Assembly (NCBI GenBank): GCA_949299165.1
Contig: CASFZJ010000001.1
Span: 626 to 64,625, forward strand
Origin: an uncultured bacterium
Lineage (GTDB): Bacteria; Bacillota_I; Bacilli_A; RFN20; CAG-826
Length of the DNA stretch: 64,000 nt
Reading direction: 5' to 3'
The position numbers were made by a program, and so were the translations under genes. Position 1 is the stretch's first letter; each line of letters opens with the position of its first letter. Below, one piece after another: positions 31,798 to 52,520 of this stretch. A model generated the notes under the pieces. The model did no database searches. It was not told the DNA's origin and saw nothing but the letters and a program-made list of their open reading frames with translations.

Positions 31798-33324
31798 TTA
31801 ATCTAATAAATCTTTAATGTTTTTAACGCGTAAAATTTCCTTTGGAGAAACTTCTTCTTTTTCTAATGTTTTATTATTAAATTGAGCTTCAATTTGGTCA
31901 AAAATATGGAATAAATTAGAAAGAACTGCACTAAAATCATTTTCATCAAATTGTAGCCCATAAAATAATTTATTTGCTTCGAAAAAATTAAATAAAAATT
32001 TTAAGTAGTCGAAACTAAAATTAATAAGTTCGTTTGCTAAATTGCTATAATCCTTTTCTTTTTTGAAGAGTAAAAAGCCATCGCAATGGGATAAAACAAC
32101 GCTTTCATAATAGCCTTCAAGCAATTCACTTTTTCTATCTTTGAAATTCTTATCGAAAAATTTTTCAACTGAAGTAAAAAAATTATCTTTTTTCATCGTG
32201 ATAATATAACTTGGATTCTGAGCAATTAAATTTATAAAAGCTTGGTAAGACAATTTTGTGTTATTTTTAATTAAATCTTCATAAACTTCTTTCATGTCAT
32301 CTTCGGTCGTATTTTCTTTAAGAAGCCTGAGTTTTGTCATCGCTGATTTAATCGAATACATTGAACAGAAATTATATGCAACATAAATTTTTGATGCTTT
32401 ATCTCTATTTACAAAACGCAAATTATCTAATATTGCTACTTTTTCAATAAAGGTTTTAAATGTAGCAACAATTCCACGATAACTTCCAATACTTTTTAAA
32501 ATAAGCGAAGTAGAAAAATAATTCCAAACCGAATTTACTAAAGTCACATAATAAACTAAAGGTCCATGATGTAAATTGTCTGAAAAAAGAGAAATACTTT
32601 CAAAAGCATCATTCAACCATGGATATTCTTTTTCGAGATTATTTATTACATCAATTAAACTAGTTTTATTCAATTTCTTAATATTTTTCAAAGCTTTTTG
32701 CAATTTTTCTGGATAATAAGTTTTTGTCAATTCAAGAATCAATTTATCAAAATCTTCAAAGTTATCTGATAAAAGGTCTAAATTAGTTTGATGTGATCTT
32801 AGTCCTAAATAATCATAAATAAATGACATTTTATTCGATTCTAAAGTAAAAATTTCTTCAACAAAATTATGATAAGAAAATTCATTTGCATAAACGCCAT
32901 GTAAAAACAAATATTTATTCTCTCTTAAAGCTGAATTAATATCACTTTTTTTAAGATGGAGTATATTTTTAATTTTAGCGCCTTCTTTAAGACCAACTTC
33001 TCTTTTTTGAGCTTGAATTTTAAAAATTTGGAGATTTATTTTCTCAAATAATTTCTTTTCATAAGGCAAATAATAAGCAAGGCATTCAAGCGATCTTCTT
33101 AAAAATAATAAAGTGTCATCGGTTCCACCTGTAATTACTTCTGAAAAATTAAAAAGAGCTAAAGAATAAGCAAATTCATAAATAATTGCATTCTCATAAA
33201 ATTCTTCAAGCGAAATATTTAAATCCTCAGATTTTGCTTCACAAATCTCCATAAGTTCAAGCGCCTTACGGAATTGTTGATTAAATTTTAATTTGCTTTT
33301 TGAATTTTTATCTAAGTTCTGCAT
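31798..33324 (-). CDS. hypothetical protein, all-helical appearance, no recognised motif
   Basis: Uninterrupted 508-aa ORF that overlaps the upstream GNAT gene by 17 nt. I recognise no family. Confidence 0.6.
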   Translation of the reverse strand: MQNLDKNSKSKLKFNQQFRKALELMEICEAKSEDLNISLEEFYENAIIYEFAYSLALFNFSEVITGGTDDTLLFLRRSLECLAYYLPYEKKLFEKINLQIFKIQAQKREVGLKEGAKIKNILHLKKSDINSALRENKYLFLHGVYANEFSYHNFVEEIFTLESNKMSFIYDYLGLRSHQTNLDLLSDNFEDFDKLILELTKTYYPEKLQKALKNIKKLNKTSLIDVINNLEKEYPWLNDAFESISLFSDNLHHGPLVYYVTLVNSVWNYFSTSLILKSIGSYRGIVATFKTFIEKVAILDNLRFVNRDKASKIYVAYNFCSMYSIKSAMTKLRLLKENTTEDDMKEVYEDLIKNNTKLSYQAFINLIAQNPSYIITMKKDNFFTSVEKFFDKNFKDRKSELLEGYYESVVLSHCDGFLLFKKEKDYSNLANELINFSFDYLKFLFNFFEANKLFYGLQFDENDFSAVLSNLFHIFDQIEAQFNNKTLEKEEVSPKEILRVKNIKDLLD

Positions 33325-33817
33325 GGTTTTTCTCGAAAATTAGCGAATAAGTCATAAAATCGCCATAAGGATAAAGTTTTCTTTGTTCAAATTTAAAACC
33401 AAGATTTTCATACATTTTGATTGCTTTAGGATTGATAGGATGAACCATAATGCCACATCCAGCGGCACCTCGATTTTTAGCTTCTTCTAACATTGACTTT
33501 ATCAAAAATGTCGCAACATGTTTTCCTTCAAAACCAGTTTTGACCATTAAACGTGAAAAAGAAAATAAGTTTTCGTGTTTAAAAATTTCTTCGCCAAATT
33601 CTTCAACTGTTTTATATAAAGCTGCAAAAGCAATAATTTCATCATTTTCAGTAACAATTCTTGCAGCTCCACTCAAAATATCTTCCTCGATATGTTTGTC
33701 GCTAGGATATTCCTCATTCCAAATATCCAAGTTTTGTTCTCTTAATCTTTTGATAACTTCATTTTTCAAAACTTGGCACTCTTTTATGTGTTTTTCTTCT
33801 GCTTTTAAATATTCCAT
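33308..33817 (-). CDS. GNAT-family N-acetyltransferase
   Basis: 169 aa with the GNAT core (IIAFAALY...RLMVKTGFEGKHVATFLIKSMLEEAKNRG...NPKAIKMYENLGF). Confidence 0.8.
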   Translation of the reverse strand: MEYLKAEEKHIKECQVLKNEVIKRLREQNLDIWNEEYPSDKHIEEDILSGAARIVTENDEIIAFAALYKTVEEFGEEIFKHENLFSFSRLMVKTGFEGKHVATFLIKSMLEEAKNRGAAGCGIMVHPINPKAIKMYENLGFKFEQRKLYPYGDFMTYSLIFEKNHAELR

Positions 33818-33926: not shown

Positions 33927-33948
33927 AAAAAACCCGCAAAACACGGGT
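33927..33948 (-). terminator. terminator after the tRNA-Asn/tRNA-Glu pair
   Basis: The minus strand reads ACCCG-tgttttg-CGGGT followed by TTTTTTATTTT. The stem is short (5 bp). Confidence 0.5.
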
Positions 33949-33961
33949 ATTTCATTTAAAT

Positions 33962-34038
33962 TGGTGACCTATACGGGATTCGAACCCATGAATGCATGCG
34001 TGAAAGGCATGTGAGTTAAGCCACTTCTCCAATAGGCC
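33962..34038 (-). tRNA. tRNA-Glu (anticodon UUC), CCA encoded
   Basis: Hand fold: acceptor GGCCTAT/ATAGGTC, anticodon stem CATGC/GCATG, loop CTTTCAC, T-arm ATGGG-TTCGAAT-CCCGT, 77 nt. Confidence 0.85.
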
Positions 34039-34044: not shown

Positions 34045-34119
34045 TGGCGCTGACTATAGGACTCGAACCTACAACCGATCGGTTAACAGCCGATTGCTCT
34101 ACCATTGAGCTAAGTCAGC
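34045..34119 (-). tRNA. tRNA-Asn (anticodon GUU), CCA encoded
   Basis: Hand fold: acceptor GCTGACT/AGTCAGC, D-arm GCTC-AATGGTA-GAGC, anticodon stem ATCGG/CCGAT, loop CTGTTAA, T-arm GTAGG-TTCGAGT-CCTAT, 75 nt. Confidence 0.9.
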
Positions 34120-34561: not shown

Positions 34562-34753
34562 CTAAAATCTTAATAAATCAGCTGAGTTAGAAACAACCTT
34601 AGCTGCAGCTTCACTAATTTCCGGTTCTGAGCTAATTTTTTCTGCTGTATTAGAAGCTGCTGTTTTAAATGCTCCAAGCAAAACTCCTGCTACTGCTCCA
34701 AAAATAGTAACAACTAAAACGATACCTAATAATTGACCTTTAATTTCTGACAT
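34562..34753 (-). CDS. candidate Flp/archaeal-type pilin (short charged leader plus hydrophobic helix)
   Basis: 63 aa: MSEIKG|QLLGIVLVVTIFGAVAGVLLGAF followed by a short polar tail. It is the last gene of the Tad-like operon. Confidence 0.5.
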   Translation of the reverse strand: MSEIKGQLLGIVLVVTIFGAVAGVLLGAFKTAASNTAEKISSEPEISEAAAKVVSNSADLLRF

Positions 34754-34779
34754 GTAAAAAATCTCCTTTCATAGTCTAA

Positions 34780-35124
34780 TTACCTATATATATTAATCAC
34801 TGCATAGCGCTTGATACTTATACGCAAAGGTTCACTCTCAAAAGCGATTGGCTTGTACTCTTTAATAAGATAATACCCTAATAAAGAACCTTGCTCGTAT
34901 GAAGATGAAGCACCAACAGGCTTAATATCACCATTAATTTCTTGCTTAACAAATGTTTGCAAGTCTTCGTTTATTTCTCCGCTTTTTGAAATCTTATAAC
35001 TAACTGTTGTAGATAATGCATCAAGCGAAGTATACGTTAATTGAATCATCACAAAATCGGATGCGAACAAAAATGCATAAAAGAAAAATAGTAAAGATAG
35101 CATTACACCTAATTTAGAACTCAT
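34780..35124 (-). CDS. TadE-like single-pass (pseudopilin-like) protein
   Basis: 114 aa with an N-terminal hydrophobic segment followed by ASDFVMIQLTYTSLDALSTTVSYKIS, reminiscent of the TadE N-terminal region. Operon context supports the call. Confidence 0.45.
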   Translation of the reverse strand: MSSKLGVMLSLLFFFYAFLFASDFVMIQLTYTSLDALSTTVSYKISKSGEINEDLQTFVKQEINGDIKPVGASSSYEQGSLLGYYLIKEYKPIAFESEPLRISIKRYAVINIYR

Positions 35125-35785
35125 TTGTCATTTCTCCTATAACTGTAACGATCACAATAAGCATAACGAGCATTAAATAAGCACTACCAAAAAGAGTAAA
35201 TAAATTGAGATTATTCATCTTTTTATAGCGATTATTTAAGCTGCCTTCTTCACTTATCTTTCTTAAATTTTCAAAAACAATAATAAATTGATTAATATAA
35301 TTTTCTTGATAACCGCCATCAACCATTTGATAAAGAGCAATCATAACTTCTTCAATCGTTTTGTTTTTAAAATATTTACCAAATTCTAAAAATGGCACAA
35401 TTGATTTATCTTCATCAATTTTGATTAAAAATTCGCTGATTTTTGCGTTCATCTCTTTTGATGTGTATTGATTTGCCTTATTTAAGGCTGTATAAACTGT
35501 TTCCTTATTTAATAAATAGATTCTTAGATAAGAAAATACTTCAACAAACTCTACTTCTAATCTTTTTCTTTTATCACTTTCGATTTGATTATAACGCGAC
35601 AGAAAAAGGTAAGAGAAAAATAAGTCTCCTATCGCGATAAAAAATAAATAATATAAAGATTTATAAATAAAAATTAAAGCAATTCCAACAGCGGTAATTA
35701 CTAAATTACCTATTAAAAATTTTAAAAATTCTTTTTTTGGATCTAGTTTTAGGTTTAGAATTTTTTGTTTTAGTTTCTTTAACAT
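35114..35785 (-). CDS. TadC-like inner-membrane platform protein (T2SS-F family)
   Basis: 223 aa with N-terminal TMs, a helical cytoplasmic domain and a C-terminal TM. The ORF-track start overlaps the upstream gene by 80 nt, so the true start may lie further in. Confidence 0.55.
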   Translation of the reverse strand: MLKKLKQKILNLKLDPKKEFLKFLIGNLVITAVGIALIFIYKSLYYLFFIAIGDLFFSYLFLSRYNQIESDKRKRLEVEFVEVFSYLRIYLLNKETVYTALNKANQYTSKEMNAKISEFLIKIDEDKSIVPFLEFGKYFKNKTIEEVMIALYQMVDGGYQENYINQFIIVFENLRKISEEGSLNNRYKKMNNLNLFTLFGSAYLMLVMLIVIVTVIGEMTNEF

Positions 35786-36488
35786 AGGAATCTCCTTTCG
35801 TCATGAATGAAATATCGTAAATTCTATTCGTCATCATTGTTAAATTGGTTAAGAAAATAAAGTAAAAAACAAAGATCATCATCGGATAATTTTCAATTTT
35901 ATAAACTGAGTTATAAATTGAAGAAATTGAAAATTGTAAGACAAATAAAATTACAAAAGTTATTAGCCAAGAAGTAATAAATTCACGAAATTTTGAGCGA
36001 CTAATACTTTCAAAACGATGTAATCTATCTTCTAGAGCTCTAGAATCACGAATTAAAGCTTGCGACATATCTAAAATATCGCCACCATTAAAAACATATT
36101 GTTTAATGATATTGATAAAAACTCCATAAAGCGGCAATTCGAAATATTTGTATAAATATTCAATTTGCTCTTCAATGTTTAAATGCGAAATAGAATCAAG
36201 TTGCATTTTTAGATTTTTCGAGGCACTATTTCGCGCGTTATCTAATGCATAAACTAAGCTTGGATTGATGCTTAAGGAAATTATGAAGTTATTGATGAAA
36301 TTAATCGCTTCAAAAGATCTATTCATGTTACGCAAATATTTACTTCTACTTTTCTCAAAAAATAGATAGAAAAATAGACAAAATATCGCAAGCAAAATTA
36401 CACTAGTGATGATATTCCAAGTAATTAAAAAATTACTTCCGGCTAAAAATAGCGATATCAAAAAATAAACTAAATACCTATATTTCAT
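35706..36488 (-). CDS. TadB-like inner-membrane platform protein (T2SS-F family)
   Basis: 260 aa with a TM - helical domain - TM layout (FEAINFINNFIISLSINPSLVYALDNA...GGDILDMSQALIRDSRALEDR). It overlaps the ATPase gene by 11 nt. Confidence 0.55.
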   Translation of the reverse strand: MKYRYLVYFLISLFLAGSNFLITWNIITSVILLAIFCLFFYLFFEKSRSKYLRNMNRSFEAINFINNFIISLSINPSLVYALDNARNSASKNLKMQLDSISHLNIEEQIEYLYKYFELPLYGVFINIIKQYVFNGGDILDMSQALIRDSRALEDRLHRFESISRSKFREFITSWLITFVILFVLQFSISSIYNSVYKIENYPMMIFVFYFIFLTNLTMMTNRIYDISFMTKGDSYVKETKTKNSKPKTRSKKRIFKIFNR

Positions 36489-37539
36489 TCTTTAACCCCG
36501 CAAATCTCTTATTAAATTTATTAAATTCAATTAATGACATCTCAAAGAGTGGTCTCATTTGAGTTGGAAGTTTTCGATATGTTGAAGGATATTTATAAAC
36601 TTCTAAATATTTTCCATTATCGTTTGTCGCGATTGTATCAACATATCTTACGTAACACTTTTTCTTATCATCATAGATTTTTTTGATGTAAACAATGAAT
36701 TTAAATTGGTCATATACATCTTCAAGTGTGTCTTTAAAATCTAAATTTTTCGAATTAATCATGCACATTCTGGCAATACGATGATAAACCCCATCAGCAT
36801 TTCGAGCATGCATTGTCGTAATAGTTGGTGCGCCACTCATTGAAGAAGTTAGGCACGCTTTCATTTCTTCGCCCCTTGCTTCACCAACAATTAACCAATC
36901 TGGATTGTTTCTTAAAGCATTTTTTATTAAATCATTGAAACTATTTTTATTAGGATTAACTAGCCAAGTTTGGCTATCTAAATTATCTTTAAAATAATTT
37001 GTTTCAAATTCATTAATGTTATCTATAAGAATTAATCGAGTATTATCGTGCATTCTTGAGATTAAAAATTTTTGGAACTCAGTTTTTCCTGAACCAGTTT
37101 TACCAGCAATTACAATTGAACACTTTTTTTCAATCGCTTCATCAAGTAAGGCTAAAGCTCTTTTTGAGATAAAAGTTCCATCGTCTAATATTCTTAATTG
37201 ATCGTAGCCAATTCTAATTGAAAAATTATAAACATGCTCTTTGTTTTTTCTAGCAAGTGAAGAATGGATTGCACTTATTCTATATTTTCCAACGCTTACA
37301 TCTAAAATTGGCTCGGAATAAGAAAATTGTTGCTCAGTTAAATTCGCTATTTGTCTTAAAAACGAATAAACTTCATCATTTGCAACTTTAATATCACTTT
37401 TTAATCTACCAAGTAAATTATCTTGATAATAAATTGATTCGCCATTATAACTCACATCAGTTATGGTAGGTTTATCTAAAAAATCTTTTAAAAAACTGCT
37501 TTCGATAAATTCTATTAATTTTGTATTCATTACATTCAT
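36478..37539 (-). CDS. CpaF/TadA/VirB11-family secretion ATPase
   Basis: 353 aa with Walker A GKTGSGKT, Asp box LILIDNINEF, Walker B DWLIVGEARGEE and His box PTITTMHA. Confidence 0.8.
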   Translation of the reverse strand: MNVMNTKLIEFIESSFLKDFLDKPTITDVSYNGESIYYQDNLLGRLKSDIKVANDEVYSFLRQIANLTEQQFSYSEPILDVSVGKYRISAIHSSLARKNKEHVYNFSIRIGYDQLRILDDGTFISKRALALLDEAIEKKCSIVIAGKTGSGKTEFQKFLISRMHDNTRLILIDNINEFETNYFKDNLDSQTWLVNPNKNSFNDLIKNALRNNPDWLIVGEARGEEMKACLTSSMSGAPTITTMHARNADGVYHRIARMCMINSKNLDFKDTLEDVYDQFKFIVYIKKIYDDKKKCYVRYVDTIATNDNGKYLEVYKYPSTYRKLPTQMRPLFEMSLIEFNKFNKRFAGLKNEI

Positions 37540-37542
37540 ATC

Positions 37543-37944
37543 CTAAATCATCCTTTCAATTTCAAAGTTTCGATATCCTTCATAAGTTAAATAAGTGCAA
37601 TAATTACATTTAAAATAGATATCAACTTTTTCTGGATACATCGATCCATCAACAACATATTGATCATCCACAATCTTGTAATAACTAAATCGAATTTTGT
37701 ATTTGTCAATGTAGCCATCTAAGTTTTTTACAAGATAAGCATTTACGTTTTTTTCAAGTGTAGTGCGATTATAATGTGGATGAAATTCGCCAGTTTTATC
37801 GACAACACAAACGCTGCTTTCTATCGATGCTAATGGAATATTATTAAATATTCTGTTAATTGACATTCCATGAATCGAAACACCAAGCACAGAACTAAGT
37901 GAACCTATTAACATGAAAGAAAAGAAAATAATCGCACTACTCAT
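37543..37944 (-). CDS. N-terminally membrane-anchored protein of the Tad-like operon
   Basis: 133 aa with one N-terminal hydrophobic helix (AIIFFSFMLIGSLSSVLGV). It starts MSS like the 114-aa ORF. Confidence 0.5.
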   Translation of the reverse strand: MSSAIIFFSFMLIGSLSSVLGVSIHGMSINRIFNNIPLASIESSVCVVDKTGEFHPHYNRTTLEKNVNAYLVKNLDGYIDKYKIRFSYYKIVDDQYVVDGSMYPEKVDIYFKCNYCTYLTYEGYRNFEIERMI

Positions 37945-39059
37945 ACTTCAATTTCATCCATAATTCCATTCCACTTTTTTATGCCTGTTCCTCCAGAGAC
38001 ATAAAAATAATCAGAAAAGAAATTTTCCGCAAAATGTACAACAAATTCATAGCTTATTGTGGCTTTTGCAGCACCAAATCTTATGCAATTAAAACAAAGC
38101 CTCGCATCCTTAAAAATGTGATAATAGTTCTGTGGAAAATATAGCGACAAATTATCTCTAAAATAACTGCTGAATAAACTTCGCGAACTTGCCATCATAG
38201 TGGTTCTTAAATCAACACAATAAGTGATGCTATAACATAACCTTTTTGCTTCCTTATTATTTGAACTTTGGAAAAAAGCAGCTCCACTAGCGTATCTTTT
38301 ATCTTTTTCGTAGCGAATAAAGGCTGAATTAAAGATATAATTTTCATCATACACCATAAAGCGAGCCGCAAGATCACTTCCAGTTCTGTTGTATTTAGTG
38401 ACGTAAGATAAATTAAAATCTGTTAAATCAAATTTATAATAAATATCTTCATAATTTTCTTTTTCAACACCAACAACTGTGACCTGTTCCTTTTCAAGTC
38501 TTAAACTCAAACCATTAAAATGAACTTCAGTAATTAACTCTTCTACATTCTCCTCCATATGAAAGTTCCATAAATTTGTAAATGGTACATCAATATAGTT
38601 AGAGATAGTTTCAAAAGGTAAGCTCGTTATGTCAGTTGAAGCAATTCGAATGAAATATTTATTTCCAATGTCATTGATTTCATTTAAATTAACTTTTACA
38701 TTTACTTCTTTTGAAGTATCATTCAAACTCAAAGAGCCTTGCGCTAAAACGTCTAACATCTCCTTATCTCCGTTTAACAAGAAGAAGTGATAAGCAGCAA
38801 ATACCGGCGCACTTTTTGAAAATTTAAAGTTTAGCGACATTTCTTCTTGCTGATAAAAATCAAGCATTCTGATATCAAAACTTTGAAGTTTCAAATTTCT
38901 GATTGGATTTTGGACTTTAATTACTTCTTCAGTTTCAAACGTTGATGAAGATGAATTTGCTTTTTTCACTTCTCCACTAGTGATAAAATTTTCTTGTGAA
39001 GGAACTGTGTTTACTAGACTAAGAAACGAAAATAACAAACTTAGTAAGAATTTCTTCAT
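37941..39059 (-). CDS. secreted or surface protein, first gene of the Tad-like operon
   Basis: 372 aa with a signal-peptide-like N-terminus (MKKFLLSLLFSFLSLVNTVPSQE) and no lipobox Cys. A strong AGGAGGT SD lies 6 nt upstream. ATGA overlap with the next gene. Confidence 0.6.
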   Translation of the reverse strand: MKKFLLSLLFSFLSLVNTVPSQENFITSGEVKKANSSSSTFETEEVIKVQNPIRNLKLQSFDIRMLDFYQQEEMSLNFKFSKSAPVFAAYHFFLLNGDKEMLDVLAQGSLSLNDTSKEVNVKVNLNEINDIGNKYFIRIASTDITSLPFETISNYIDVPFTNLWNFHMEENVEELITEVHFNGLSLRLEKEQVTVVGVEKENYEDIYYKFDLTDFNLSYVTKYNRTGSDLAARFMVYDENYIFNSAFIRYEKDKRYASGAAFFQSSNNKEAKRLCYSITYCVDLRTTMMASSRSLFSSYFRDNLSLYFPQNYYHIFKDARLCFNCIRFGAAKATISYEFVVHFAENFFSDYFYVSGGTGIKKWNGIMDEIEV

Positions 39060-39141: not shown

Positions 39142-39666
39142 ATGATTATTTTAGTCGGACCTAGCGCAAGTGGAAAAACAGCGATTGCTAAGCACTTAAT
39201 TCGATTTGGCTACCAAAAATTTGTCACCACAACAACTCGTAAAAAAAGATTTGGTGAAATTGATGGAGTCGATTATTTTTTCGTGTCGAAAGAAGAATTT
39301 CAAAAATATATTAAAGAAGATTTATTTATCGAACACACAATTTATAACGATAATTATTATGGATCCTTTAAAAAAGAAAATGGTGAAAATAAAGTTTTAA
39401 TTGTTGAGCCAAATGGTTTTAAGTCGTTCCAAGCTTTAAAAGACAAAAACATAGTTAGCTTTTACATTAAAGCAAGTGAAGAAACCCGCATCAAAAGAAT
39501 GAAAGAAAGAGGAGATAAAGAAAACGATATCAAAAAAAGAATCGAAAATGACCGAATCGTTTTTCCTGATAATTTAGAAGTAGATTTTGTTATTGATAAT
39601 GAAAATGAGGATTTAGATAAAATCACTCAAAAAATTATTTCTATATATAAAGAGAAAATTAAATAA
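39142..39666 (+). CDS. gmk: guanylate kinase family protein (short form)
   Basis: 174 aa with the P-loop GPSASGKT, TTTTRKKRFGEIDGVDYFFVSKEEF and YYGS. Confidence 0.7.
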   Translation: MIILVGPSASGKTAIAKHLIRFGYQKFVTTTTRKKRFGEIDGVDYFFVSKEEFQKYIKEDLFIEHTIYNDNYYGSFKKENGENKVLIVEPNGFKSFQALKDKNIVSFYIKASEETRIKRMKERGDKENDIKKRIENDRIVFPDNLEVDFVIDNENEDLDKITQKIISIYKEKIK

Positions 39667-40983
39667 TTATTCTTCTTCCTCTTCTACTTTAACTAATAAT
39701 TTTTCAATTGTTTGTTTTTCGTCAATCGCAATGACTTTCATTGTTAAGTTTTTATATTTAATAATCGTATTTAATTTAGCAAATTTATCATCTAAAAGCT
39801 CAACACAAAAGCCACCAATTGTAACATAATCTGTTTCAATATCATCGTATTCTAGATTAAAAAGCTCGCAAAAGTCCTCTAAATTCATTTTTCCATCAAC
39901 AATATATGAGCCATCATTTTTCTTAATATATGGAGAAGAAATATCATCACTTTCATCCCGAATCTCGCCAACAATTTCTTCTAATATGTCTTCCATTGTT
40001 AAAACGCCTTCAACTCCACCATATTCATCAAGAATAACTGCAAAATGGCGATGAGACTTTTTAAATTCAATCAAAATATCATTAATTTCAGTAGAGCGAG
40101 GGAAAGTTAATGTTTCAATAAGTAAATCTCTTAAAGTGACATTATTATTTTCTAATTTTGATCTAACAAGTGATTTTGTTAAAACATAACCCAAAATATT
40201 ATCGATGCTATCTTCATAAACTGGAATTCGAGAATAAACATAGGTTTCATCATTTTTTAAAATTTCATCGATATCATCGTTTACTTCTACTGCATAAACA
40301 TCAACTCTAGGTGTCATAATTTCATAAGCTTCAGTTTCTGCATAATCAATTGTGCCATGTAAAATTTCTGCTTTTTCTTCGTTAACTAAACCTTTATCTT
40401 CAATTTCGTCAACCATTTCATGAAGTTCATCATCGGATATTTTAACATCTTCAACATTTTTTCTAATTGGATAAGAAACAATGGCACCAAAACCACTTAC
40501 AAAGAAGGTAATTGGATAAAATGCATATTGTAAAGCGTTTAAAACTCGTGAATAAAGTGCTGCGAATTTGTAGTTATAAATTTTGCCAATTGACTTAGCT
40601 ATAATTTCACCAAAAGTAATTTTAATAACTAAGCAAATAATAGAAGCAATAAAGCCCCAGTTTTCACTACTTATACTTGCAAGTTCAGTTTCACCCATTA
40701 CTAAAAAGCAAAGATTAACACCAATTAAAGTTGAAACAGAATCTAAACAAGCATTAACTGTATCATTTAAAAGAAGAATTGTAGAAATTGTTTTATCGTA
40801 ATCTTTAGATAATTTAAATGCGTATTTATTCGCTTTTTTGCTTTCATTTTTTCGATAGATTGCTTCAAGTTTATTAACGTTACAACTACCATAGCTCATA
40901 TCAGCACTTGAAAAAATAAAGCTTAAAAAGACCATCAAAACAAAAACTAGAGTATATACAATAATCGTTACTTCTCTACTCAT
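39667..40983 (-). CDS. CNNM/HlyC/CorC-family transporter (DUF21 - CBS pair - CorC_HlyC)
   Basis: 438 aa with an N-terminal 4-TM DUF21-like domain, a CBS pair (IMTPRVDVYAV...VILDEYGGVEGVLTMEDILEEIVGEI) and a C-terminal CorC domain. Confidence 0.8.
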   Translation of the reverse strand: MSREVTIIVYTLVFVLMVFLSFIFSSADMSYGSCNVNKLEAIYRKNESKKANKYAFKLSKDYDKTISTILLLNDTVNACLDSVSTLIGVNLCFLVMGETELASISSENWGFIASIICLVIKITFGEIIAKSIGKIYNYKFAALYSRVLNALQYAFYPITFFVSGFGAIVSYPIRKNVEDVKISDDELHEMVDEIEDKGLVNEEKAEILHGTIDYAETEAYEIMTPRVDVYAVEVNDDIDEILKNDETYVYSRIPVYEDSIDNILGYVLTKSLVRSKLENNNVTLRDLLIETLTFPRSTEINDILIEFKKSHRHFAVILDEYGGVEGVLTMEDILEEIVGEIRDESDDISSPYIKKNDGSYIVDGKMNLEDFCELFNLEYDDIETDYVTIGGFCVELLDDKFAKLNTIIKYKNLTMKVIAIDEKQTIEKLLVKVEEEEE

Positions 40984-42104
40984 TTTTTGCTAGCCTCTTT
41001 TAAAATGTTGGTTTTCTTTTCGTTAATTTCGCCAACAAGTTCTTCTAAAACATCTTCCATCGTAATCATTCCGACAACTTTTCCATCTTTTTTAACAATT
41101 GCAATGTGTTTCTTTTCCTTATTAAAAGAGCGGAAAATATCGTCAACTTTAGCAGAATAATCAACAAAAAGAGGTTTAGATAAAACGCCTCTTATCTCAA
41201 GATGTGGATCTTTTGTATATTCTTTAAAATAGTTTTTAACAGTCAAAATCCCAATAATATTATCAATCGTTCCATCATAAACTGGGATACGAGAAAATGT
41301 CGTATCTAAAATGATTTTATTTAATTTTTCATAAGTTAAGCCATTGATATCAACTGCAAGAATTTTTTCTCTTGGTGTCAAAACTTCGTTTACATAAATT
41401 GAATCAAAATAAAAAGCACGATTTAAAAGTTGAAGTTCATTTGGTTCGAATAATTCTTCTTCTTTTTCTTCATCATCTTCATTTTCATCTTCAACAACCG
41501 CTTCATCTGCTTGTAAAATAAAATCTTCTTTAGTTAAGATATTGTCTTCTTTAATCTTAAATAATTTATGAACCGCTTTTAAAATTAATTTAAAAAAGAT
41601 TGAGATTGGCGAAAGAATTATACCAATTATAAAAACAGGATAGGCCAAAACATAAACTAATTTATTTGGAATTTCTTTAGAGATTATTTTAGGCACAGTA
41701 TCGCTAACAACATAAACAAGTATTGCCATGACGACTGTAGAAATAAGTGCTTCTAATCCCGCTAAACCATTTGCGTTACAAATATTATAAAAAATCATCG
41801 CACTTAAATAAGACATAAAAGTTTGCATGATATTGTTGCCAACTAATATTGTAATTAAGGTATTATCGAATTTTTCTACGAGTTTTACGATAATTTTAGC
41901 TGTTACTTTGCCTTCATCCGCTAAAACTTTAAAGTGATATTTATTGCAATTTGAAAAAGCATTCTCAGAAGCACTGAATAATGCACTTATTAATAAGCAA
42001 ATAACAATGATTATCCACCAAAAATAATCTGGCATTCCCCAGATTGTATTCGTACTCGGTTGATCTATGCTTTCTACTAAAATTTTTATCGAACTCGGCG
42101 ACAT
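40980..42104 (-). CDS. CNNM/CorC-family transporter paralogue lacking the C-terminal CorC_HlyC domain
   Basis: 374 aa with DUF21-like TMs and a CBS pair (VLTPREKILAV...AIVKKDGKVVGMITMEDVLEELVGEI). It ends right after the CBS pair. ATGA-type overlap with the next gene. Confidence 0.75.
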   Translation of the reverse strand: MSPSSIKILVESIDQPSTNTIWGMPDYFWWIIIVICLLISALFSASENAFSNCNKYHFKVLADEGKVTAKIIVKLVEKFDNTLITILVGNNIMQTFMSYLSAMIFYNICNANGLAGLEALISTVVMAILVYVVSDTVPKIISKEIPNKLVYVLAYPVFIIGIILSPISIFFKLILKAVHKLFKIKEDNILTKEDFILQADEAVVEDENEDDEEKEEELFEPNELQLLNRAFYFDSIYVNEVLTPREKILAVDINGLTYEKLNKIILDTTFSRIPVYDGTIDNIIGILTVKNYFKEYTKDPHLEIRGVLSKPLFVDYSAKVDDIFRSFNKEKKHIAIVKKDGKVVGMITMEDVLEELVGEINEKKTNILKEASKK

Positions 42105-42127: not shown

Positions 42128-42706
42128 TTAATCTTTTACAACATGACAATGGCGGCAGCGAGCTTCATATGATTCGCTAGCACCAACCAAAACTACTGGA
42201 TCTTTACGAGAAACTGGCACGCCATTAACCAAACGTTGAGTCATAGTTGCTTCTCTTCCACACACGCAACAAATAGCAGTAAGTTTTGTAACATATTCAG
42301 CTTTTGCAAGAATTGTAGCACTAATAGGAAATGGATCGCCTTTAAAATCACAATCTAGACCAGCACAAATTACTCTTTTGCCTTTATTTGCTAGTTCATC
42401 AATAATTTTAACAATTCCTTCATCGAAAAATTGAACTTCATCAATACATATTACATCAATATCATCTGTAAAAAATTTACAAATTTCTTCGCTTTTTGAA
42501 ATCGCAATTGCTTTTGAACTTCTTTTATTGTGCGAAACAACTTCTGTTTCGCTATATCTATTATCGATTGATGGTTTAAAAACTAAATATTTCTTTTTTG
42601 CATATTTTAAACGATTAATTCTTCTTAATAATTCTTCGCTTTTACCTGCAAACATTGGTCCAGTTATCATTTCGATTGAACCTATTTCTAAATCATCATG
42701 ACCCAT
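42128..42706 (-). CDS. tdk: thymidine kinase
   Basis: GPMFAGKSEELLRR P-loop, IDEVQFF, and a C-terminal zinc motif CxxC...CRHC. Confidence 0.95.
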   Translation of the reverse strand: MGHDDLEIGSIEMITGPMFAGKSEELLRRINRLKYAKKKYLVFKPSIDNRYSETEVVSHNKRSSKAIAISKSEEICKFFTDDIDVICIDEVQFFDEGIVKIIDELANKGKRVICAGLDCDFKGDPFPISATILAKAEYVTKLTAICCVCGREATMTQRLVNGVPVSRKDPVVLVGASESYEARCRHCHVVKD

Positions 42707-43012: not shown

Positions 43013-45325
43013 TTAGTTATTTTTTAATTGGCTTGCCCAGTCGATATTTTCTTCTGGTCCAACTTGTTCGATACCTTTTTCTCTCATACAGTCGTTAATG
43101 AGATCTCTAGCTCTTCTTAAAGAAAGATCCGATTTAACTCTGAAGACGAGTGGTATATCTTTATATACTGCTTTGAAACTTGCATCTCCAACAGGAATTG
43201 CAGAATTCTTATAATCTTTTGGATCTAACGCGATATAAAGTTTGAGATGTTGTCCGCCCATTGTAATTTTACAATAAGTGACTTTACGTAATCTGAATGT
43301 GTCGCCGCTTGAAGATAATCTATCTTTTAAGCCATAGGACATGAGTAAGTTCTTTAAGTTATTGTAAGCAAGTACAATATCACTTCCACCAGTTAATACT
43401 CTTTCAGCAAAGTTAAGTTTAACAACTTCACCTTTTTCAAGAGTAGCTTCTTTTCCTCTAACATCTGGTTGTTTGATTAAAGGTCTCTTTTCTTCAACAA
43501 CAGGTTCTGGTTCTGGTTGAGGTGCTGGAACTTCAACTTCCTTAACTACTTCTTTAACAACTGGAACTTCAACTTGTTTAACGACTTCTTTAATAACAGG
43601 AACTTCTTTAACAACTGGAATTTCCTTGACAACTTCTTTAACGACAGGAACTTCTTTTACAACTTCTTTAACGACTTCTTTAATTTCAGGTTTCTTTTCT
43701 TCGACATAAACTGGAACTTCTTTAACAGTTTCTGTTTCTTCAACCTTAATATCTTTTAAAGCTTCAGCAAGCTGTGTTCTAACTAAAGTTCTTAGATCTT
43801 CTTCAGTGATTCTTTCTTCTTCCTCGACTTCAACTTCAGGAGCAACTTCGACTTTTTCTTCTTTTGCTTCTTCAATTTTTGCAGGCATTGCAACAACGAT
43901 AGGAGCAACAGTTTTTTCTTCAGTGATAGGTTGTACGACTGGAGCAGCTACTGGTTCAGCAACTGTATCTTTTTTAAGAGCTTCACTGACGAGTTTTCTA
44001 ACGTCATCTTTGGTTTCGACGACTTCTTCTTTCTTTTCGCCGACTGTTTCTTTAATAAGTTCTCTTAAATCATCAATAGTTAAGAGATCATAGTCATCTG
44101 ATAAATCTCTTCTTTCTTCTACTGGAGCAACAACAGGAGTTACTGGAGCTTCGATATGAACATCATCTTTAAGAAGGTCATTATCTCTTAAAACATCGAT
44201 AACAGCACTCTTAATATCATCTCTTGTTAAACCTGGGTTTGTTTCAACAGGAGAGACACTTCTTGTACCATATAATCCAGCTGTTTCAGTTTCACGTTTT
44301 GTATGTTTTAATTTTTCTTCTCCACCATTAGTTGTAATGTATTGAACAATTAATGGAGCATTGTTACCAGTTTGAACAACATTACCACCACTTTGTGGAG
44401 CAACAGTTCCAGCAATTGGATAGCCATAAGGAGCATAAGCATAAGGTGCAGGTGCAGGTGCTACACCAGGTTGAGGAGCAACAGGAGCGCCATAGACTTG
44501 TGGAGCGACTTCAGGTGCCTTATTCTTATTCTTTTCATTAATATTCTTGAATCCATGATTCTTGTAATATTTAATCTTTTCTTTTCTTTCTCTTCTTGTG
44601 AGGTAATCGTATTTATGACTTGATGTGTAAACAAATGCTTGAACTAAATAAACAAGTGCACAGATGCAAACGATAACTGCAGAAATGAGAAGACCCCAAA
44701 CACAGGCTACTGCGCAAATAATAGCGAGAACTTGCCACCAATTTTGTGCTTCAAATGCAGTACCTAAATAAGCAATTGATGGACTATTAATCCAGCCATA
44801 AGTTGCAAAATAGCCATTTGCAAATGCAGCTGTTGGAACAACCGCGTCCATTGCTTCTGGACCAAATGCAAGCACACTCAATGCGACAATATTTAATTCA
44901 GTTGCTGCACCAAGAATTATTCCAAAAATACCAATAAAGATTAACTTCCAATTCTTATGTGTAAAGCATTGAATCAAAATAATAATGAAAGCAATTAATA
45001 CAACTGCAAGTACAACAACATAAGCAATAAATGGAATTGCTCTAATGCCACTATCTAATAACGAACCCCAAAGTTCAAAATCACCAATAGCTCTAGCATA
45101 AGATACTACATTTTCATTCCAGAAATTGAATGTCAAATTTAATACTTGTTTAAATGTGCCAAAGAAATCTAATTGACCAGCAACACTACCAATTGTTATC
45201 AATTCTTGGCCACCATTTACCCAACCTTTAAGATTAGAAGATCCGGTAAAAATGGCTAATACAAATGCGATAATTGAAAATATTAAAGCGACTACGAAGG
45301 TTTTGACTAATCTACTTTTTCTCAT
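43013..45325 (-). CDS. 4-TM membrane protein with a P/A- and VKEV-repeat linker and a conserved unknown C-terminal domain (paralogue B)
   Basis: 770 aa. N-terminus MRKSRLV plus four hydrophobic segments. Linker PQVYGAPVAPQPGVAPAPAPYAYAPYGYP and the VKEVVKEVPVVKEV repeats. The C-terminal ~130 aa are alignable with the upstream paralogue (FRLRKVTYCKITMGGQHLKLYIALDPKDY...PLVFRVKSDLSLRRARDLINDCM). Confidence 0.7.
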   Translation of the reverse strand: MRKSRLVKTFVVALIFSIIAFVLAIFTGSSNLKGWVNGGQELITIGSVAGQLDFFGTFKQVLNLTFNFWNENVVSYARAIGDFELWGSLLDSGIRAIPFIAYVVVLAVVLIAFIIILIQCFTHKNWKLIFIGIFGIILGAATELNIVALSVLAFGPEAMDAVVPTAAFANGYFATYGWINSPSIAYLGTAFEAQNWWQVLAIICAVACVWGLLISAVIVCICALVYLVQAFVYTSSHKYDYLTRRERKEKIKYYKNHGFKNINEKNKNKAPEVAPQVYGAPVAPQPGVAPAPAPYAYAPYGYPIAGTVAPQSGGNVVQTGNNAPLIVQYITTNGGEEKLKHTKRETETAGLYGTRSVSPVETNPGLTRDDIKSAVIDVLRDNDLLKDDVHIEAPVTPVVAPVEERRDLSDDYDLLTIDDLRELIKETVGEKKEEVVETKDDVRKLVSEALKKDTVAEPVAAPVVQPITEEKTVAPIVVAMPAKIEEAKEEKVEVAPEVEVEEEERITEEDLRTLVRTQLAEALKDIKVEETETVKEVPVYVEEKKPEIKEVVKEVVKEVPVVKEVVKEIPVVKEVPVIKEVVKQVEVPVVKEVVKEVEVPAPQPEPEPVVEEKRPLIKQPDVRGKEATLEKGEVVKLNFAERVLTGGSDIVLAYNNLKNLLMSYGLKDRLSSSGDTFRLRKVTYCKITMGGQHLKLYIALDPKDYKNSAIPVGDASFKAVYKDIPLVFRVKSDLSLRRARDLINDCMREKGIEQVGPEENIDWASQLKNN
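43520..43700 (-). repeat. in-frame imperfect tandem repeat (about 21 nt; VKEVPVV-type heptads)
   Basis: The plus strand shows repeated aacttctttaacNacNgg units. The translation is KEVVKEVVKEVPVVKEVVKEIPVVKEVPVIKEVVKQVEVPVVKEVVKEVEVP. Confidence 0.8.
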
Positions 45326-45342: not shown

Positions 45343-47514
45343 TTATTCTTCATCGCCTTCGTCGCCATCATCAACAATGGTTTCGTTAGCGAGCTCACTT
45401 GCCCAATCGAATTCTTTGACTTGATCAATTTGTTCGAGACCATGTTTATCCATACAATCTCTAATCAATTCATCAGCTCTTCTTAAGCTAAGTCCACTCT
45501 TAACTTTAAAGACAAGTGGTGTTTCTTTATAAATATTTTTGCTGCTTGCATCTTTAATAGGATATGTTGAATCAACATAATCTTGTGGATCAAGTGCAAG
45601 ATATAATTTTAAGGATTTACCAGCAATAGTAATCTTACAATAAGTAACTCTATGTAATCTGAAGGAATCTCCACCATTAGCTACTCTGTTATTTAAACCA
45701 TAAGATTTTAAGAGTGATTTGATGTGATTATATGCACTCTTTAATTCATCATCAGCATCCATCATTCTAGTTGTAAATGGAACTCTAACAATTTTTGGTT
45801 TTTCTTCAGTAACAACTTGAGCTGCTTCAACTACAGGTTCTTCTTTAGCTGGTTCTTCTACAGGTGTTTCTTCAACTTTTGGTTCTTCTGCAGGAACCTC
45901 TTCTTGAACTGGAGTTTCTGGAATAACTTCTTCAACTTTAGTTTCTTCAACAGGAGTTTCTTCAGTTTTTACTTCCTCAGTTGGGACTTCTGTTTCAGGA
46001 ACTTCTTCTTTAACTTCTTCAGTTACGACAGTTTCTTCAACTTTTACTTCTTCAGCTGGAACTTCTTCTTTAACTGTTTCTACAGGTTTTGTCTCTTCAA
46101 TAGTTGTTTCTTCAACAACTGGAGTTTCAGTTACAACTGGTTCTTCATGAACAACTTCTTCTTTAGTTTCTTCAACTACAGGCTCTTCTTTTGCAGGAAC
46201 TTTAACTTCAACTTGTTTTTCGACAACTTTTTCATGTTTAATGACAAGATCTTTTAAGGCTTCTCTGATTTCACTAGCGATAATATCTTTAACTTGTTCT
46301 TCAGTTAAACCTTTATTAGCTTTTTTAGGAGCTTCTGTTTTTTCAACTTTAACTTCTTCTTTTTCAGCATTAACTTCTTTAACAACTGAAGGCATTGCAA
46401 CGATTATAGGTGATGAATAAACTTTTTCTTCATCTTTTTTGCCTTCAACTGCGGTAGAAACTTTTGCTGGTTGACTTGCAACACTATCAGCATTGGCCTT
46501 TACGATAGCGTTAGCCATAATAGCAGCATTTTTCTCTGCTTTATATTCTTCGACAATTCTTCTTGCTTCAGCTTTTTCAATTTCTTCTCTAATAACTTCT
46601 TTAACTTCAGCGACAGTTAAAGCTTTAGATTTTACAGCTTTTGCAGGATATTCGACACCACTACCTTCAACGAGTGGTCCATAATTGCCATATTTATCAT
46701 ATCTTTTAACAATAAGAATACCTTTTTTCTTTTCAGGTGCTGGTGCTGGTGTTTCTTGAACAGGTGCAGCTTCAACAACTGGAGCAACAGCTTCTTCAGC
46801 AACAACTTCTTCAACTTCTTTCTTCTTAATAGATGCTAATCCAGTGATTGCAATTCCAAAGAATGAAATGATGTAGATAGCAGCAGCAATAACTAAAACC
46901 CAAGTTAAAGCGGTAACAATAATTGCTGGTGTACCTTTTTCCATGATTGCACTATTATGCCATCCATAGAGCAATGCATTAACCCATGCCCCCCAGATAG
47001 TTAAATCACCTGGTCTTCTTGCGGCATCTACTAATCCATCAATTTCAACACCATTGCTGATATAATGCCAATCAACGTGATTTCCAAAGTAATAAGCGTT
47101 TGTGCATAACCATGCAATAATGCCAAATACAAGGAAAAAGATTGCAAAACCAACAAATTTTCCATTTTTTCTCTTGATAGCTTTAGCTAATAAAGCAACA
47201 AAGAAAATAACAACAAATGCTGTTACAGCAATCCAAACAACATTATCAACAATGAAATGTGTATCATTCCAGTTTCCTAAACCTTGACCACTAAATAACA
47301 ATCCGAAAAATTCCCAAATTGTTGTGGTGAAGAATCTAGTACTGAAGACTGGTAACCAAGCAATGGCGGAAAGATTGCTGCTATCAAAATAATGGCCAAT
47401 AAGTTCGTTAGCAGTGTCTCTGAACCAAATGCCTAGTCCTAGTACGGCTAAGGTAAAAATCATAGCGACTACGCCAGTTATTACCCAGTTTCTTAAAACG
47501 CGGCTTTTCTTCAT
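45343..47514 (-). CDS. 4-TM membrane protein with an E/V/P/T-rich linker and a conserved unknown C-terminal domain (paralogue A)
   Basis: 723 aa. N-terminus MKKSRVL plus four hydrophobic segments. C-terminus FRLHRVTYCKITIAGKSLKLYLALDPQDY...PLVFKVKSGLSLRRADELIRDCM. A GGAGGGG SD for the next gene lies in the 17-nt gap. Confidence 0.7.
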   Translation of the reverse strand: MKKSRVLRNWVITGVVAMIFTLAVLGLGIWFRDTANELIGHYFDSSNLSAIAWLPVFSTRFFTTTIWEFFGLLFSGQGLGNWNDTHFIVDNVVWIAVTAFVVIFFVALLAKAIKRKNGKFVGFAIFFLVFGIIAWLCTNAYYFGNHVDWHYISNGVEIDGLVDAARRPGDLTIWGAWVNALLYGWHNSAIMEKGTPAIIVTALTWVLVIAAAIYIISFFGIAITGLASIKKKEVEEVVAEEAVAPVVEAAPVQETPAPAPEKKKGILIVKRYDKYGNYGPLVEGSGVEYPAKAVKSKALTVAEVKEVIREEIEKAEARRIVEEYKAEKNAAIMANAIVKANADSVASQPAKVSTAVEGKKDEEKVYSSPIIVAMPSVVKEVNAEKEEVKVEKTEAPKKANKGLTEEQVKDIIASEIREALKDLVIKHEKVVEKQVEVKVPAKEEPVVEETKEEVVHEEPVVTETPVVEETTIEETKPVETVKEEVPAEEVKVEETVVTEEVKEEVPETEVPTEEVKTEETPVEETKVEEVIPETPVQEEVPAEEPKVEETPVEEPAKEEPVVEAAQVVTEEKPKIVRVPFTTRMMDADDELKSAYNHIKSLLKSYGLNNRVANGGDSFRLHRVTYCKITIAGKSLKLYLALDPQDYVDSTYPIKDASSKNIYKETPLVFKVKSGLSLRRADELIRDCMDKHGLEQIDQVKEFDWASELANETIVDDGDEGDEE
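45800..46260 (-). repeat. low-complexity coding region (EEPVVEET / EEVKVEET-type)
   Basis: The translation is rich in E, V, P, T and K with recurring VEET/EEVP words. The antisense strand yields an artefactual F/N-rich ORF. Confidence 0.7.
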
Positions 47515-51910: not shown

Positions 51911-51920
51911 AAACACTCCT

Positions 51921-52520
51921 TTACATAGTTTCAACTAGCATTCCTGAATAAGTACTAACCACTGTAAATATCGTAACAATCGTTAGTATTAAAGTAGCGA
52001 CCAACACTAAATTTAAAATCATGACAACATTTTGCGATATTTTAAATTTTGGAATATATCTTGTCATGATTAATCCAAGAGCTAAAATCAATCCAATTAA
52101 ATCAAAAGCAAAAGTAATAATTACAAGTGGATTGCCGCTTTCCATCAAAATCGAATTAAAAGAAAATACTTCGATTGCTCCACTTGAATAAGTAATTGAA
52201 AGCGAAGGAATAAACGCAACTATAATAAAGAAAACATAGATAACAGCATTTAAAACAGCAAAAATCAGATTGTTTATAGATTTAGAAACCGAAATTTTTG
52301 TGCTCTCTTTAATCGTTTCATCATTCACAATTTCTTCAAACGGAACTTCAAAAACTTTAGCTAATTCATTTAATTCTAATTTAGAAGGAATAAGCATGTC
52401 TTTTTCGATTTTGTTTAATCTTTTAACATCAATTTTTGATTTTTCACTTACTACCTCTAATTTAAGTTCTCTATTTTCTCTAAGATTTTTAATTTTTTCG
52501 CCAATAGTCATAATTTTCAC
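51921..52520 (-). CDS. XRE-family HTH protein fused to a multi-TM C-terminal domain
   Basis: 199 aa. The N-terminus IGEKIKNLRENRELKLEVVSEKSKIDVKRLNKIEKD is a Cro/C1-type HTH. Three or four hydrophobic helices follow. Confidence 0.75.
   Translation of the reverse strand: MKIMTIGEKIKNLRENRELKLEVVSEKSKIDVKRLNKIEKDMLIPSKLELNELAKVFEVPFEEIVNDETIKESTKISVSKSINNLIFAVLNAVIYVFFIIVAFIPSLSITYSSGAIEVFSFNSILMESGNPLVIITFAFDLIGLILALGLIMTRYIPKFKISQNVVMILNLVLVATLILTIVTIFTVVSTYSGMLVETM

Follow-up and report, generated by a model that had tools for sequence, protein, structure and literature searches.

A chromosomal operon of uncultured gut Bacilli as a candidate minimal type IV filament machine related to a module of Gram-positive conjugative plasmids

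We analyzed a stretch of 64,000 nucleotides (nt) from an uncultured bacterium of the CAG-826 lineage (contig CASFZJ010000001.1 of assembly GCA_949299165.1, positions 626-64,625, forward strand); this whole stretch is called the window below. Seven densely packed open reading frames (ORFs) occupy positions 34562-39059 on its minus strand. We consider it fairly probable that this operon builds a minimal machine of the type IV filament (TFF), or pilus, type, and that the machine belongs to an unclassified branch. On profile and tree evidence, its ATPase and both candidate platform proteins are homologous to the gene 37-39 block of plasmid pLS20. To judge from synteny, the operon is an old, vertically inherited core feature of an uncultured, AT-rich, small-genome lineage of gut Bacilli. 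A sequence-only reading of the same DNA had called the locus a Tad/Flp-like pilus operon. The ATPase, two platform genes with weak T2SSF signals and a pilin-like protein agree with the pilus part of that proposal, but the clade of the ATPase, the Flp motif and the TadE and Flp Pfam families do not agree with the Tad/Flp part.

The operon encodes a 353-amino-acid (aa) ATPase. The motifs listed in the sequence-only reading, a Walker A GKTGSGKT, a Walker B/Glu box DWLIVGEARGEE and a His box TTMHA, are all present in the translation. Pfam T2SSE (PF00437) is matched at E 4.4e-19, with 68.8 bits against a cut-off of 24.9, and by this match the protein belongs to the T2SSE superfamily. None of the NCBIfam equivalog cut-offs is reached. 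The VirB11 model (TIGR02788) scores highest, with 110 bits (cut-off 250), followed by the TadA-family model with 92.7 (373), TrbB (TIGR02782) with 85 (305) and FlaI with 73 (550); weak matches to the ComGA and BasE models were also seen. Matches to PDB profiles range from E 1e-15 to 1e-9 and include HP0525 VirB11, AfGspE (4e-15), FlaI (2e-12) and CpaF. By these scores the ATPase appears about equally distant from Helicobacter pylori VirB11, AfGspE, FlaI and CpaF. Many homologues of the ATPase (for example, in locus L027) carry a precomputed match to PF27713 (UCP018868), and the window protein has none in our local Pfam scan.

A tblastn search of a plasmid collection pointed in a particular direction. 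The best matches, at 90-135 bits, were all 'CpaF/VirB11 family' proteins of Gram-positive plasmids: the pLS20 family of Bacillus, Listeria pLM5578-type plasmids, pXO2, pXO1 and Paraclostridium plasmids. Canonical VirB11, TrbB and proteobacterial CpaF reached just 56-73 bits in the same search. In a neighbor-joining tree (277 trimmed columns, 200 bootstraps), the window family and the ATPases of pLS20, Listeria, pXO2 and Paraclostridium form one clade with a bootstrap of 100%, separate from VirB11/TrbB (65%) and from CpaF plus the archaeal ATPases (72%). The sister relation to the Gram-positive plasmid ATPases is robust, and the deep branching of this tree should not be over-read. Of the earlier label, a CpaF/TadA/VirB11-type ATPase, the T2SSE superfamily survives in the Pfam search, but the tree places the protein outside the CpaF/TadA clade and outside VirB11/TrbB. 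Clustering with conjugative VirB11 proteins had been named as an outcome that would refute the Tad/Flp-like reading. Nominally such clustering is present, as the nearest annotated relatives are 'VirB11-like' proteins of conjugative plasmids, but they form a clade separate from canonical VirB11/TrbB and are encoded in the same pilus-like gene block.

The two genes after the ATPase gene had been taken for a TadB/TadC-like polytopic pair. Hydropathy analysis of the 260- and 223-aa products reproduced the layout of transmembrane (TM) segments, helical domain and TM segments, and no Pfam or NCBIfam family hits either protein above threshold. An exhaustive profile search collected 267 clusters at 50% identity for the 260-aa family, and every relative examined is encoded in this same type of operon. 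Profiles of the 260- and 223-aa families align with each other (hhalign 83-85%, E 6e-6 to 9.5e-6), which makes the two proteins, on profile evidence, paralogues, as TadB and TadC are. Three independent lines, each below threshold, make it probable that the 260-aa family carries a T2SSF domain. Compared with an alignment of three annotated TadB proteins, the family gave an hhalign probability of 74.5% (E 2.7e-5) over 136 columns that cover exactly the T2SSF domain, including its GG motif; TadC matched in the same region at E 0.0015. The plasmid and Tad alignments used in such comparisons are shallow (3-4 sequences). An AlphaFold2 (AF2) model of the 260-aa protein (pLDDT 80.6) is all-helical, with two TM helices, a six-helix domain and two further TM helices, and its top Foldseek matches are the cytoplasmic domains of OutF/GspF (5nbg, TMt 0.62) and PilC (2whn, TMt 0.57-0.61), with a root mean square deviation of 3.6-3.9 Å and E ~2. 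Finally, sub-threshold matches to PF00482 with near-full model coverage (E 0.004-0.14) were obtained for the family consensus (E 0.0043, model positions 1-120 of 125), for 4 of 31 members, for a distant orthologue, for the consensus of plasmid gene 38, and for the pXO2 and pXO1 proteins. Profile hidden Markov models of the 260-aa family found no matches among the PDB profiles. The 223-aa family showed no direct significant match to TadB or TadC in profile comparison. What stands of the proposed TadB/TadC-like pair is accordingly the topology, the paralogy and the weak T2SSF signals of the 260-aa protein, but not a direct match for the 223-aa one.

The same gene block is found on a pLS20-like plasmid of B. 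subtilis, on Listeria pLM5578, on pXO2 and on a Paraclostridium plasmid. There it runs from an N-terminally anchored protein of 119-129 aa through the ATPase and proteins of 267-277, 240-257 and 118-120 aa to one or two of 47-80 aa. A thioester-domain adhesin gene usually lies upstream of the block and VirD4 further downstream. Homology extends beyond the ATPase: the 260-aa family matches the plasmid gene-38 family (hhalign 93.7%, E 1.8e-7), and the 223-aa family matches the gene-39 family (62-74%, E 2.7e-5 to 7.5e-5), with a blastp E of 1.4e-5 between the 223-aa protein and the pLS20-like 245-aa protein. The 114-aa family aligns colinearly with the gene-40 family over its full length, though weakly (E 0.0018), and the two have in common the motif Y-x-I-x-[KR]-x-G and a C-terminal IK..A....R. 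The 133-aa protein gave no significant match to the gene-36 family (hhalign E 0.033-0.26), and we treat it as a putative equivalent of pLS20 gene 36 by position and topology. Profile comparison of the plasmid gene-38 family with TadB, using very shallow alignments, was non-significant. In the paper on the pLS20 family, gene 37 is a 'putative VirB11' and genes 36 and 38-41 are 'Unknown' (PMC8557374). That paper states that Gram-positive conjugative elements form no pili, a later one repeats that Gram-positive systems lack a pilus (PMC11730352), and such systems have been said to be universally without VirB11 (PMC12857230). In the literature searched we found no paper that reads pLS20 genes 36-41 as a pilus-type module, and one may exist elsewhere.

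Several features of the plasmids stand apart from this comparison. On pXO1 (locus L023, 3809-8396) the module is fuller: the gene for the T2SSE ATPase comes after one for a ParA/MinD-like (TadZ-like) ATPase and before one for a 310-aa protein that matches T2SSF weakly, and two proteins of 67/68 aa have a long leader ending in ...ENG before a hydrophobic helix, as in Flp prepilins. On pXO2 (locus L013, 9517-9795) a TrbC/VirB2-family gene comes after the module. The 47-aa pilin-like gene of the pLS20 gene 41 type is tandemly duplicated in two loci (L011, 11131-11274 and 11300-11443; L014, 10247-10650), with no difference between the copies in the B. subtilis plasmid and with near-identical copies in Paraclostridium. 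Such a duplication fits a highly expressed structural subunit.

The last gene of the window operon encodes the candidate major subunit, a protein of 63 aa. Its N-terminus reads MSEIKG/QLLGIVLVVTIFGAVAGVLLGAF, where the slash marks the predicted cleavage site: a leader, MSEIKG, is followed by Gln at +1 and a hydrophobic stretch of about 22 residues, and the C-terminal tail varies. Residues 1-9 (MSEIKGQLL) are invariant in 8 orthologues and appear as MSE[IL]KGQLL in the most distant loci. The pattern of a short charged leader, Gly at -1 and about 20 hydrophobic residues has the geometry of a class III (prepilin) signal, and substrates of EppA in Methanococcus maripaludis have a leader of 5-13 residues ending in Gly, with Gln at +1 (PMC3875500). 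The earlier description of the protein as pilin-like is supported by this class III-like leader, which is invariant or near-invariant across the lineage. The Flp motif G/XXXXEY (E5, Y6) is not present, the predicted mature N-terminus being QLLGIV, and the +5 Glu that Flp and most bacterial pilins carry is missing.

The 114- and 133-aa proteins each have a single N-terminal hydrophobic segment by hydropathy, as had been described. The 114-aa protein starts with a leader of 6 residues, the last of them an invariant Gly (MxxKxG), and continues with a hydrophobic helix and a beta-rich domain; G6 is kept in the most distant orthologues. The shared leader length and terminal Gly of the 63- and 114-aa proteins suggest that one peptidase would serve both. 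The name 'TadE-like' that had been given to the 114-aa protein was not borne out, as no Pfam TadE match was found at E <= 1. The 133-aa protein has its TM segment at residues 1-25 and is conserved in all related loci; it is possibly an assembly factor or a minor subunit. Neither it nor any of the other five non-ATPase proteins has a match above threshold in Pfam, NCBIfam or PHROGs.

The first gene encodes a 372-aa protein with an ordinary Sec-type signal. BLAST loses its orthologues in loci whose ATPases are 53-58% identical, no relatives were detected outside the lineage, and searches of Pfam, NCBIfam, PHROGs and PDB profiles gave no match; the sequence-only reading had likewise recognized nothing in this or the 133-aa protein. 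An AF2 model built from an 11-sequence alignment has a mean pLDDT of 61. It contains an N-terminal beta-sandwich (residues ~43-190, pLDDT 73-93) and has no confident fold in the C-terminal half. Foldseek returned only generic immunoglobulin (Ig)- or fibronectin type III-like domains at E ~2e-3 (glycosidases, complement, transglutaminase, RbmA, ScpB), and the modeled N-terminal domain appears Ig-like. The gene occupies the position that the thioester adhesin gene (tie) has upstream of the plasmid module. Because the protein evolves fast, has an Ig-like predicted fold and is encoded just upstream of the machine, it may be a surface adhesin or a filament-associated (tip or anchor) protein, and we regard it as a candidate for such a role.

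All seven ORFs that had been described are in the ORF list of the window (Table 1), and the spacing recomputed from the ORF coordinates agrees with the earlier description: overlaps of 4, 11, 80 and 11 nt, plus two gaps, of 3 and 26 nt. At least 12 related loci share all seven genes in this order. We take them as real genes because the block recurs in order in every related locus examined. Strong Shine-Dalgarno sequences precede two genes, the first of the operon and the 63-aa gene; that of the latter is AAAGGAGA. A promoter and terminator scan gave counts no higher than in shuffled sequence, with a single strong terminator after tRNA-Glu. The GC content is 27-35% across the window, with no local anomaly at the operon, and the closest genomes are metagenome-assembled genomes from human or animal gut titled 'uncultured Bacilli', 'Bacillales' or 'Mollicutes bacterium UMGS238'. 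Both facts fit the AT-rich, reduced, Mollicutes-like host that had been suggested.

Table 1. Features of the window, with the amino acid identity of operon genes and flanking gmk to their counterparts in relatives (loci L002-L006) whose ATPases are 77-79% identical.
Feature	Positions	Strand	Signal or assignment	Identity to relatives
372-aa secreted protein	37941-39059	minus	Sec-type signal peptide	33-36%; fastest-evolving in operon
133-aa N-anchored protein	37543-37944	minus	single N-terminal hydrophobic segment	52-59%
353-aa ATPase	36478-37539	minus	T2SSE superfamily, Pfam	77-79%
260-aa polytopic protein, candidate platform subunit 1	35706-36488	minus	T2SSF-like signals; pLS20 gene 38 equivalent	63-69%
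223-aa membrane protein, candidate platform subunit 2	35114-35785	minus	paralogue of 260-aa protein; pLS20 gene 39 equivalent	69-80%
114-aa candidate minor pilin	34780-35124	minus	leader with Gly; positional equivalent of pLS20 gene 40	82-86%; most conserved small gene of operon
63-aa pilin-like protein, candidate major subunit	34562-34753	minus	class III-like leader	70-84%
tRNA-Asn	34045-34119
tRNA-Glu	33962-34038
Strong terminator	33932-33948
gmk	39142-39666			58-65%
CNNM/CBS (CorC-type) membrane protein	39667-40983
CNNM/CBS (CorC-type) membrane protein	40980-42104
Thymidine kinase	42128-42706
GNAT acetyltransferase	33308-33817
508-aa protein	31798-33324	minus	no Pfam hit
770-aa membrane protein	43013-45325	minus	~four N-terminal TM segments
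723-aa membrane protein	45343-47514	minus	~four N-terminal TM segments
M18 aminopeptidase	49016-50383
M18 aminopeptidase	50564-51934
1899-aa protein	57146-62845	minus	DUF4011, AAA_11/AAA_12 helicase and REase_MTES_1575 nuclease domains

The operon has a fixed place in the chromosome. The conserved order is thymidine kinase, CNNM, CNNM, gmk (on the opposite strand), the seven genes and acyl carrier protein (ACP); it is kept in loci whose ATPases are 98%, ~78%, 58% and 53% identical to that of the window, and also where the platform protein is only ~19% identical. Retention of the gmk-to-ACP synteny from 98% down to this ~19% platform identity suggests that the operon is under purifying selection. 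The sequence-only reading had considered horizontal mobility, given the neighboring tRNA-Asn and tRNA-Glu genes, which do adjoin the locus. The operon is not an island, however, because the gmk-to-ACP synteny holds across the whole lineage. We rejected mobility on this synteny with housekeeping neighbors and on the uniform composition, and the tRNA genes beside the operon are incidental.

Some details vary among the relatives. The overlap of the two platform genes is 80 nt in the window (35706-35785) and 53, 32, 20 or 4 nt among loci L007, L009, L025 and L027, and several members of the 260-aa family (239-243 aa) do not have its Lys-rich C-terminal tail. We therefore regard the 80-nt overlap as a probable lineage-specific extension and not as a conserved feature. 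In the most distant relatives an extra gene of 120 aa stands at the head of the operon (L025, 7178-7540), before a gene for a 364-aa secreted protein; its product is non-membrane, has no Pfam hit and is absent from the window.

These observations can be assembled into a working model. A hexameric T2SSE ATPase, the 353-aa protein, would dock on a platform in the inner membrane, a heteromer of the 260- and 223-aa proteins. The 6-residue leader of the 63-aa protein would be removed by a prepilin-type peptidase whose gene would lie outside the operon, and the ATPase would then drive membrane extraction and polymerization of the processed protein via the platform. The 114-aa protein, with its same leader geometry, and perhaps the 133-aa protein could act as minor or priming subunits. 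The Ig-like 372-aa protein would be displayed on the filament or cooperate with it as an adhesin. Such a machine would operate much as a Tad or archaeal-type pilus does. Both the production of a filament or pseudopilus and the cleavage of the leader are predictions of this model. As to the biological role, we favor adhesion to cells or to the host, and DNA uptake or surface-protein display are possible.

A number of points weigh against a filament machine. No prepilin peptidase is known for the organism, and none was found in the window. No filament has been seen in the lineage or for the plasmid module, and Gram-positive conjugation is said to be pilus-free (PMC8557374, PMC11730352, PMC12857230). 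The T2SSF evidence falls below threshold in each test (Foldseek E ~2, Pfam E 0.004-0.14, hhalign probability 74.5%), and the 223-aa protein is linked to T2SSF via its paralogue only. The 63-aa protein has neither a Glu at +5 nor a Flp, TadE or pilin Pfam match (none at E <= 1 for PF04964 Flp_Fap), and neither the 114- nor the 133-aa protein shows significant homology to any known minor pilin. The tree, too, is a simple neighbor-joining one with few outgroups and with partial archaeal sequences taken from PDB alignments.

The same parts could also make a short pseudopilus in place of an extended adhesive pilus, serving DNA uptake as in ComG, or protein export or surface assembly as in the type II secretion system (T2SS) and the archaeal bindosome, with the 372-aa protein perhaps as substrate. 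We judge this unlikely, if worth keeping in mind. An ATPase, a platform and small pilin-like proteins are indeed common to ComG, T2SS and Bas, the ATPase weakly matches the ComGA and BasE models, and the module is very small and has no retraction ATPase. This lineage, whose genome has been described as reduced, could profit from scavenging DNA. Yet the Pfam scan found no ComEA, ComEC or ComFA in the window, the platform consists of two separate single-domain proteins and not of a two-domain ComGB/GspF, and the 63-aa protein is Flp-sized and has no globular domain like that of ComGC/GspG. The 372-aa protein carries an ordinary Sec signal and could be exported without such a machine.

Alternatively, the operon may come from a Gram-positive conjugation system, as a domesticated part or a remnant of it. 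The block of pLS20 genes 36-41 would then be an accessory of the type IV secretion system (T4SS), with a VirB11-like ATPase, and would move DNA or protein between cells instead of making a filament. In favor of this, the closest annotated relatives of the ATPase are all on conjugative or mobilizable Gram-positive plasmids and have been published as putative VirB11, the VirB11 model gives the best NCBIfam score, and the gene order is that of the start of the plasmid conjugation operons, which run on into VirD4. But VirB4, VirD4, VirB6, VirB8, VirB1 and a relaxase are absent from the window and from the Pfam-annotated genes of related loci. The gmk-ACP location in every relative points to ancient vertical inheritance, not to an integrated element. 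Canonical VirB11/TrbB proteins form a clade of their own, apart from that of the window ATPase, and canonical VirB11 does not come with a pair of T2SSF-like platform proteins and with Flp-sized pilin-like genes. It may also be that the plasmid block is itself a TFF module. We consider this explanation quite improbable. The reading as a canonical Tad/Flp (type IVc) locus, altered only by divergence within an AT-rich genome, is very hard to credit: split platform genes like TadB/TadC, a Flp-sized pilin, a match of the ATPase to the TadA-family model and the best alignment of the 260-aa family to TadB would suit it, but the ATPase lies outside the CpaF/TadA clade and by bit score is as far from CpaF as from VirB11 or farther, the locus has no TadZ, TadV, CpaB or TadE/F/G, no G/XXXXEY motif and no Flp_Fap or TadE Pfam match, and it is not mobile.

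If the operon encodes a filament machine, as we propose, its kinship with the plasmid block raises a broader idea. The window operon and pLS20 genes 36-41 could form an unrecognized TFF branch confined to Bacillota, serving as a mating pilus or pseudopilus in the plasmids and as a core, stand-alone attachment filament in the gut lineage. We put this forward as a tentative proposal, toward which we remain slightly more doubtful than convinced. Were it true, it would overturn the view of Gram-positive conjugation as working without pili or the function of a VirB11-type ATPase. If the filament reading of the operon is right, the 'unknown' essential-region genes of pLS20, pXO2/pAW63 and Listeria pLM80-type plasmids would be reread as a pilus-type module, and a large uncultured small-genome gut lineage would turn out to have a conserved surface filament that annotation pipelines leave unnamed; six of the seven operon genes have no family. 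There would be a handle on attachment to host or partner cells, with the 63-aa subunit and the hypervariable 372-aa protein as candidate surface antigens. A deep minimal TFF branch would also help to reconstruct the relations of Tad, archaeal pili and VirB11 ATPases.

Outside the operon, the window consists of core housekeeping chromosome. By a Pfam scan that took in nearly all non-nested window ORFs of at least 90 aa, the region contains RsmB/F, FtsK, RNase J, PNPase, BacA, UppS, RimP-NusA-IF2-RbfA and S15, as well as RibF, IspH, DXS, EF-G, ACP, gmk, two CNNM/CorC proteins, thymidine kinase and M18 aminopeptidases. Of these, gmk, the CNNM gene next to it and thymidine kinase were assigned via Pfam hits of syntenic counterparts. 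An A24 peptidase, ParA/TadZ, secretin, VirB4, VirD4 or relaxase did not turn up in the window, and a search of the window for the prepilin peptidase motif G.GD.K was negative; the earlier statement that no prepilin peptidase, TadZ or secretin is in view was correct.

Other genes of the window deserve mention. The tandem CNNM/CBS pair lies beside the operon in all relatives, and on the other side, downstream of the operon, relatives also keep the 508-aa gene (39-48% identity), which overlaps the GNAT gene by 17 nt, together with that GNAT gene. The adjacent 770- and 723-aa membrane proteins have no Pfam hit at E <= 1e-5. The same position in one relative (L007) is taken by two genes, of 563 and 660 aa, that likewise have no Pfam hit, and the window pair is possibly a lineage-specific surface or transport pair. 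Tandem M18 aminopeptidases are found in this supposedly reduced genome. The 1899-aa protein has a large helicase-nuclease architecture and is possibly defense-related.

Among known systems, Tad/Flp (type IVc) resembles the window operon in having a T2SSE ATPase followed by two separate platform genes with a single T2SSF domain each, and in a very small pilin with little beyond one helix. In monoderm Tad systems the secretin is absent and the peptidase may be unlinked (PMC6668835). Unlike its Tad counterpart, the window ATPase does not group with CpaF and lacks the longer N-terminal region of CpaF, and the platform proteins are ~60-90 residues shorter than TadB/TadC examples (314-329 aa). Neither the operon nor the window has TadZ/CpaE, TadV/CpaA, CpaB, TadE, TadF or TadG; the operon also differs in its missing E5, Y6 motif and TadE or Flp_Fap matches, and in not being horizontally mobile. 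The Tad locus of the TANB77 pilus paper is another and fuller one, which includes CpaB, TadZ and a TadBC fusion, and our search for literature on pili or Tad in RF39-type Bacilli found nothing.

The archaeal EppA-dependent (Epd) type IV pili resemble the operon in the leader, which is short, class III and ends in Gly with Gln at +1, and their processed pilins have ~55-60 residues (PMC3875500). The window ATPase is about as similar to AfGspE and FlaI as to VirB11. However, archaeal systems have a single platform gene and ATPases of ~510 aa that group with CpaF (72%), M. maripaludis pilins keep the +5 Glu that the 63-aa protein lacks, and no EppA-like peptidase was found in the window. VirB11/TrbB proteins (315-342 aa) are similar in size to the 353-aa ATPase, and in the NCBIfam and PDB searches the highest single scores are those to VirB11 models; the NCBIfam score is nevertheless far below its cut-off, the clade is a separate one, no VirB/VirD4 partners are in the window, and the neighbors are T2SSF-like platform and pilin-like genes, which are not found in VirB11 systems.

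The pLS20-type block corresponds to the window operon in gene order and sizes (~126 aa, ATPase, ~267, ~245, ~120 and ~47 aa in pLS20) and in having a gene for a surface protein upstream, tie in the plasmids and the 372-aa gene in the window. Equivalents of pLS20 genes 36-41 are present on pXO2/pAW63-type, Listeria pLM5578/pLM80-type and Paraclostridium plasmids. The plasmids are mobile and have VirD4, VirB4, VirB6, VirB8 and VirB1 in the conjugation operon, whereas the window operon is stand-alone, chromosomal and flanked by gmk and ACP, with no T4SS genes in the window. The ATPases are ~32% identical (353 aa versus 402-443 in the plasmids), the pilin-like leaders differ (MSEIKG/Q in the window, MLDQN[AT]DR... 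in the plasmids), and the upstream adhesins are unrelated, an Ig-like orphan in one case and a thioester-domain protein in the other. The 'generic TFF' of Denise et al. 2019 consists of an ATPase, an inner-membrane platform and a pilin, and allows the peptidase to be encoded elsewhere (PMC6668835). With a platform assignment that is probable only, the window operon would fall within this definition.

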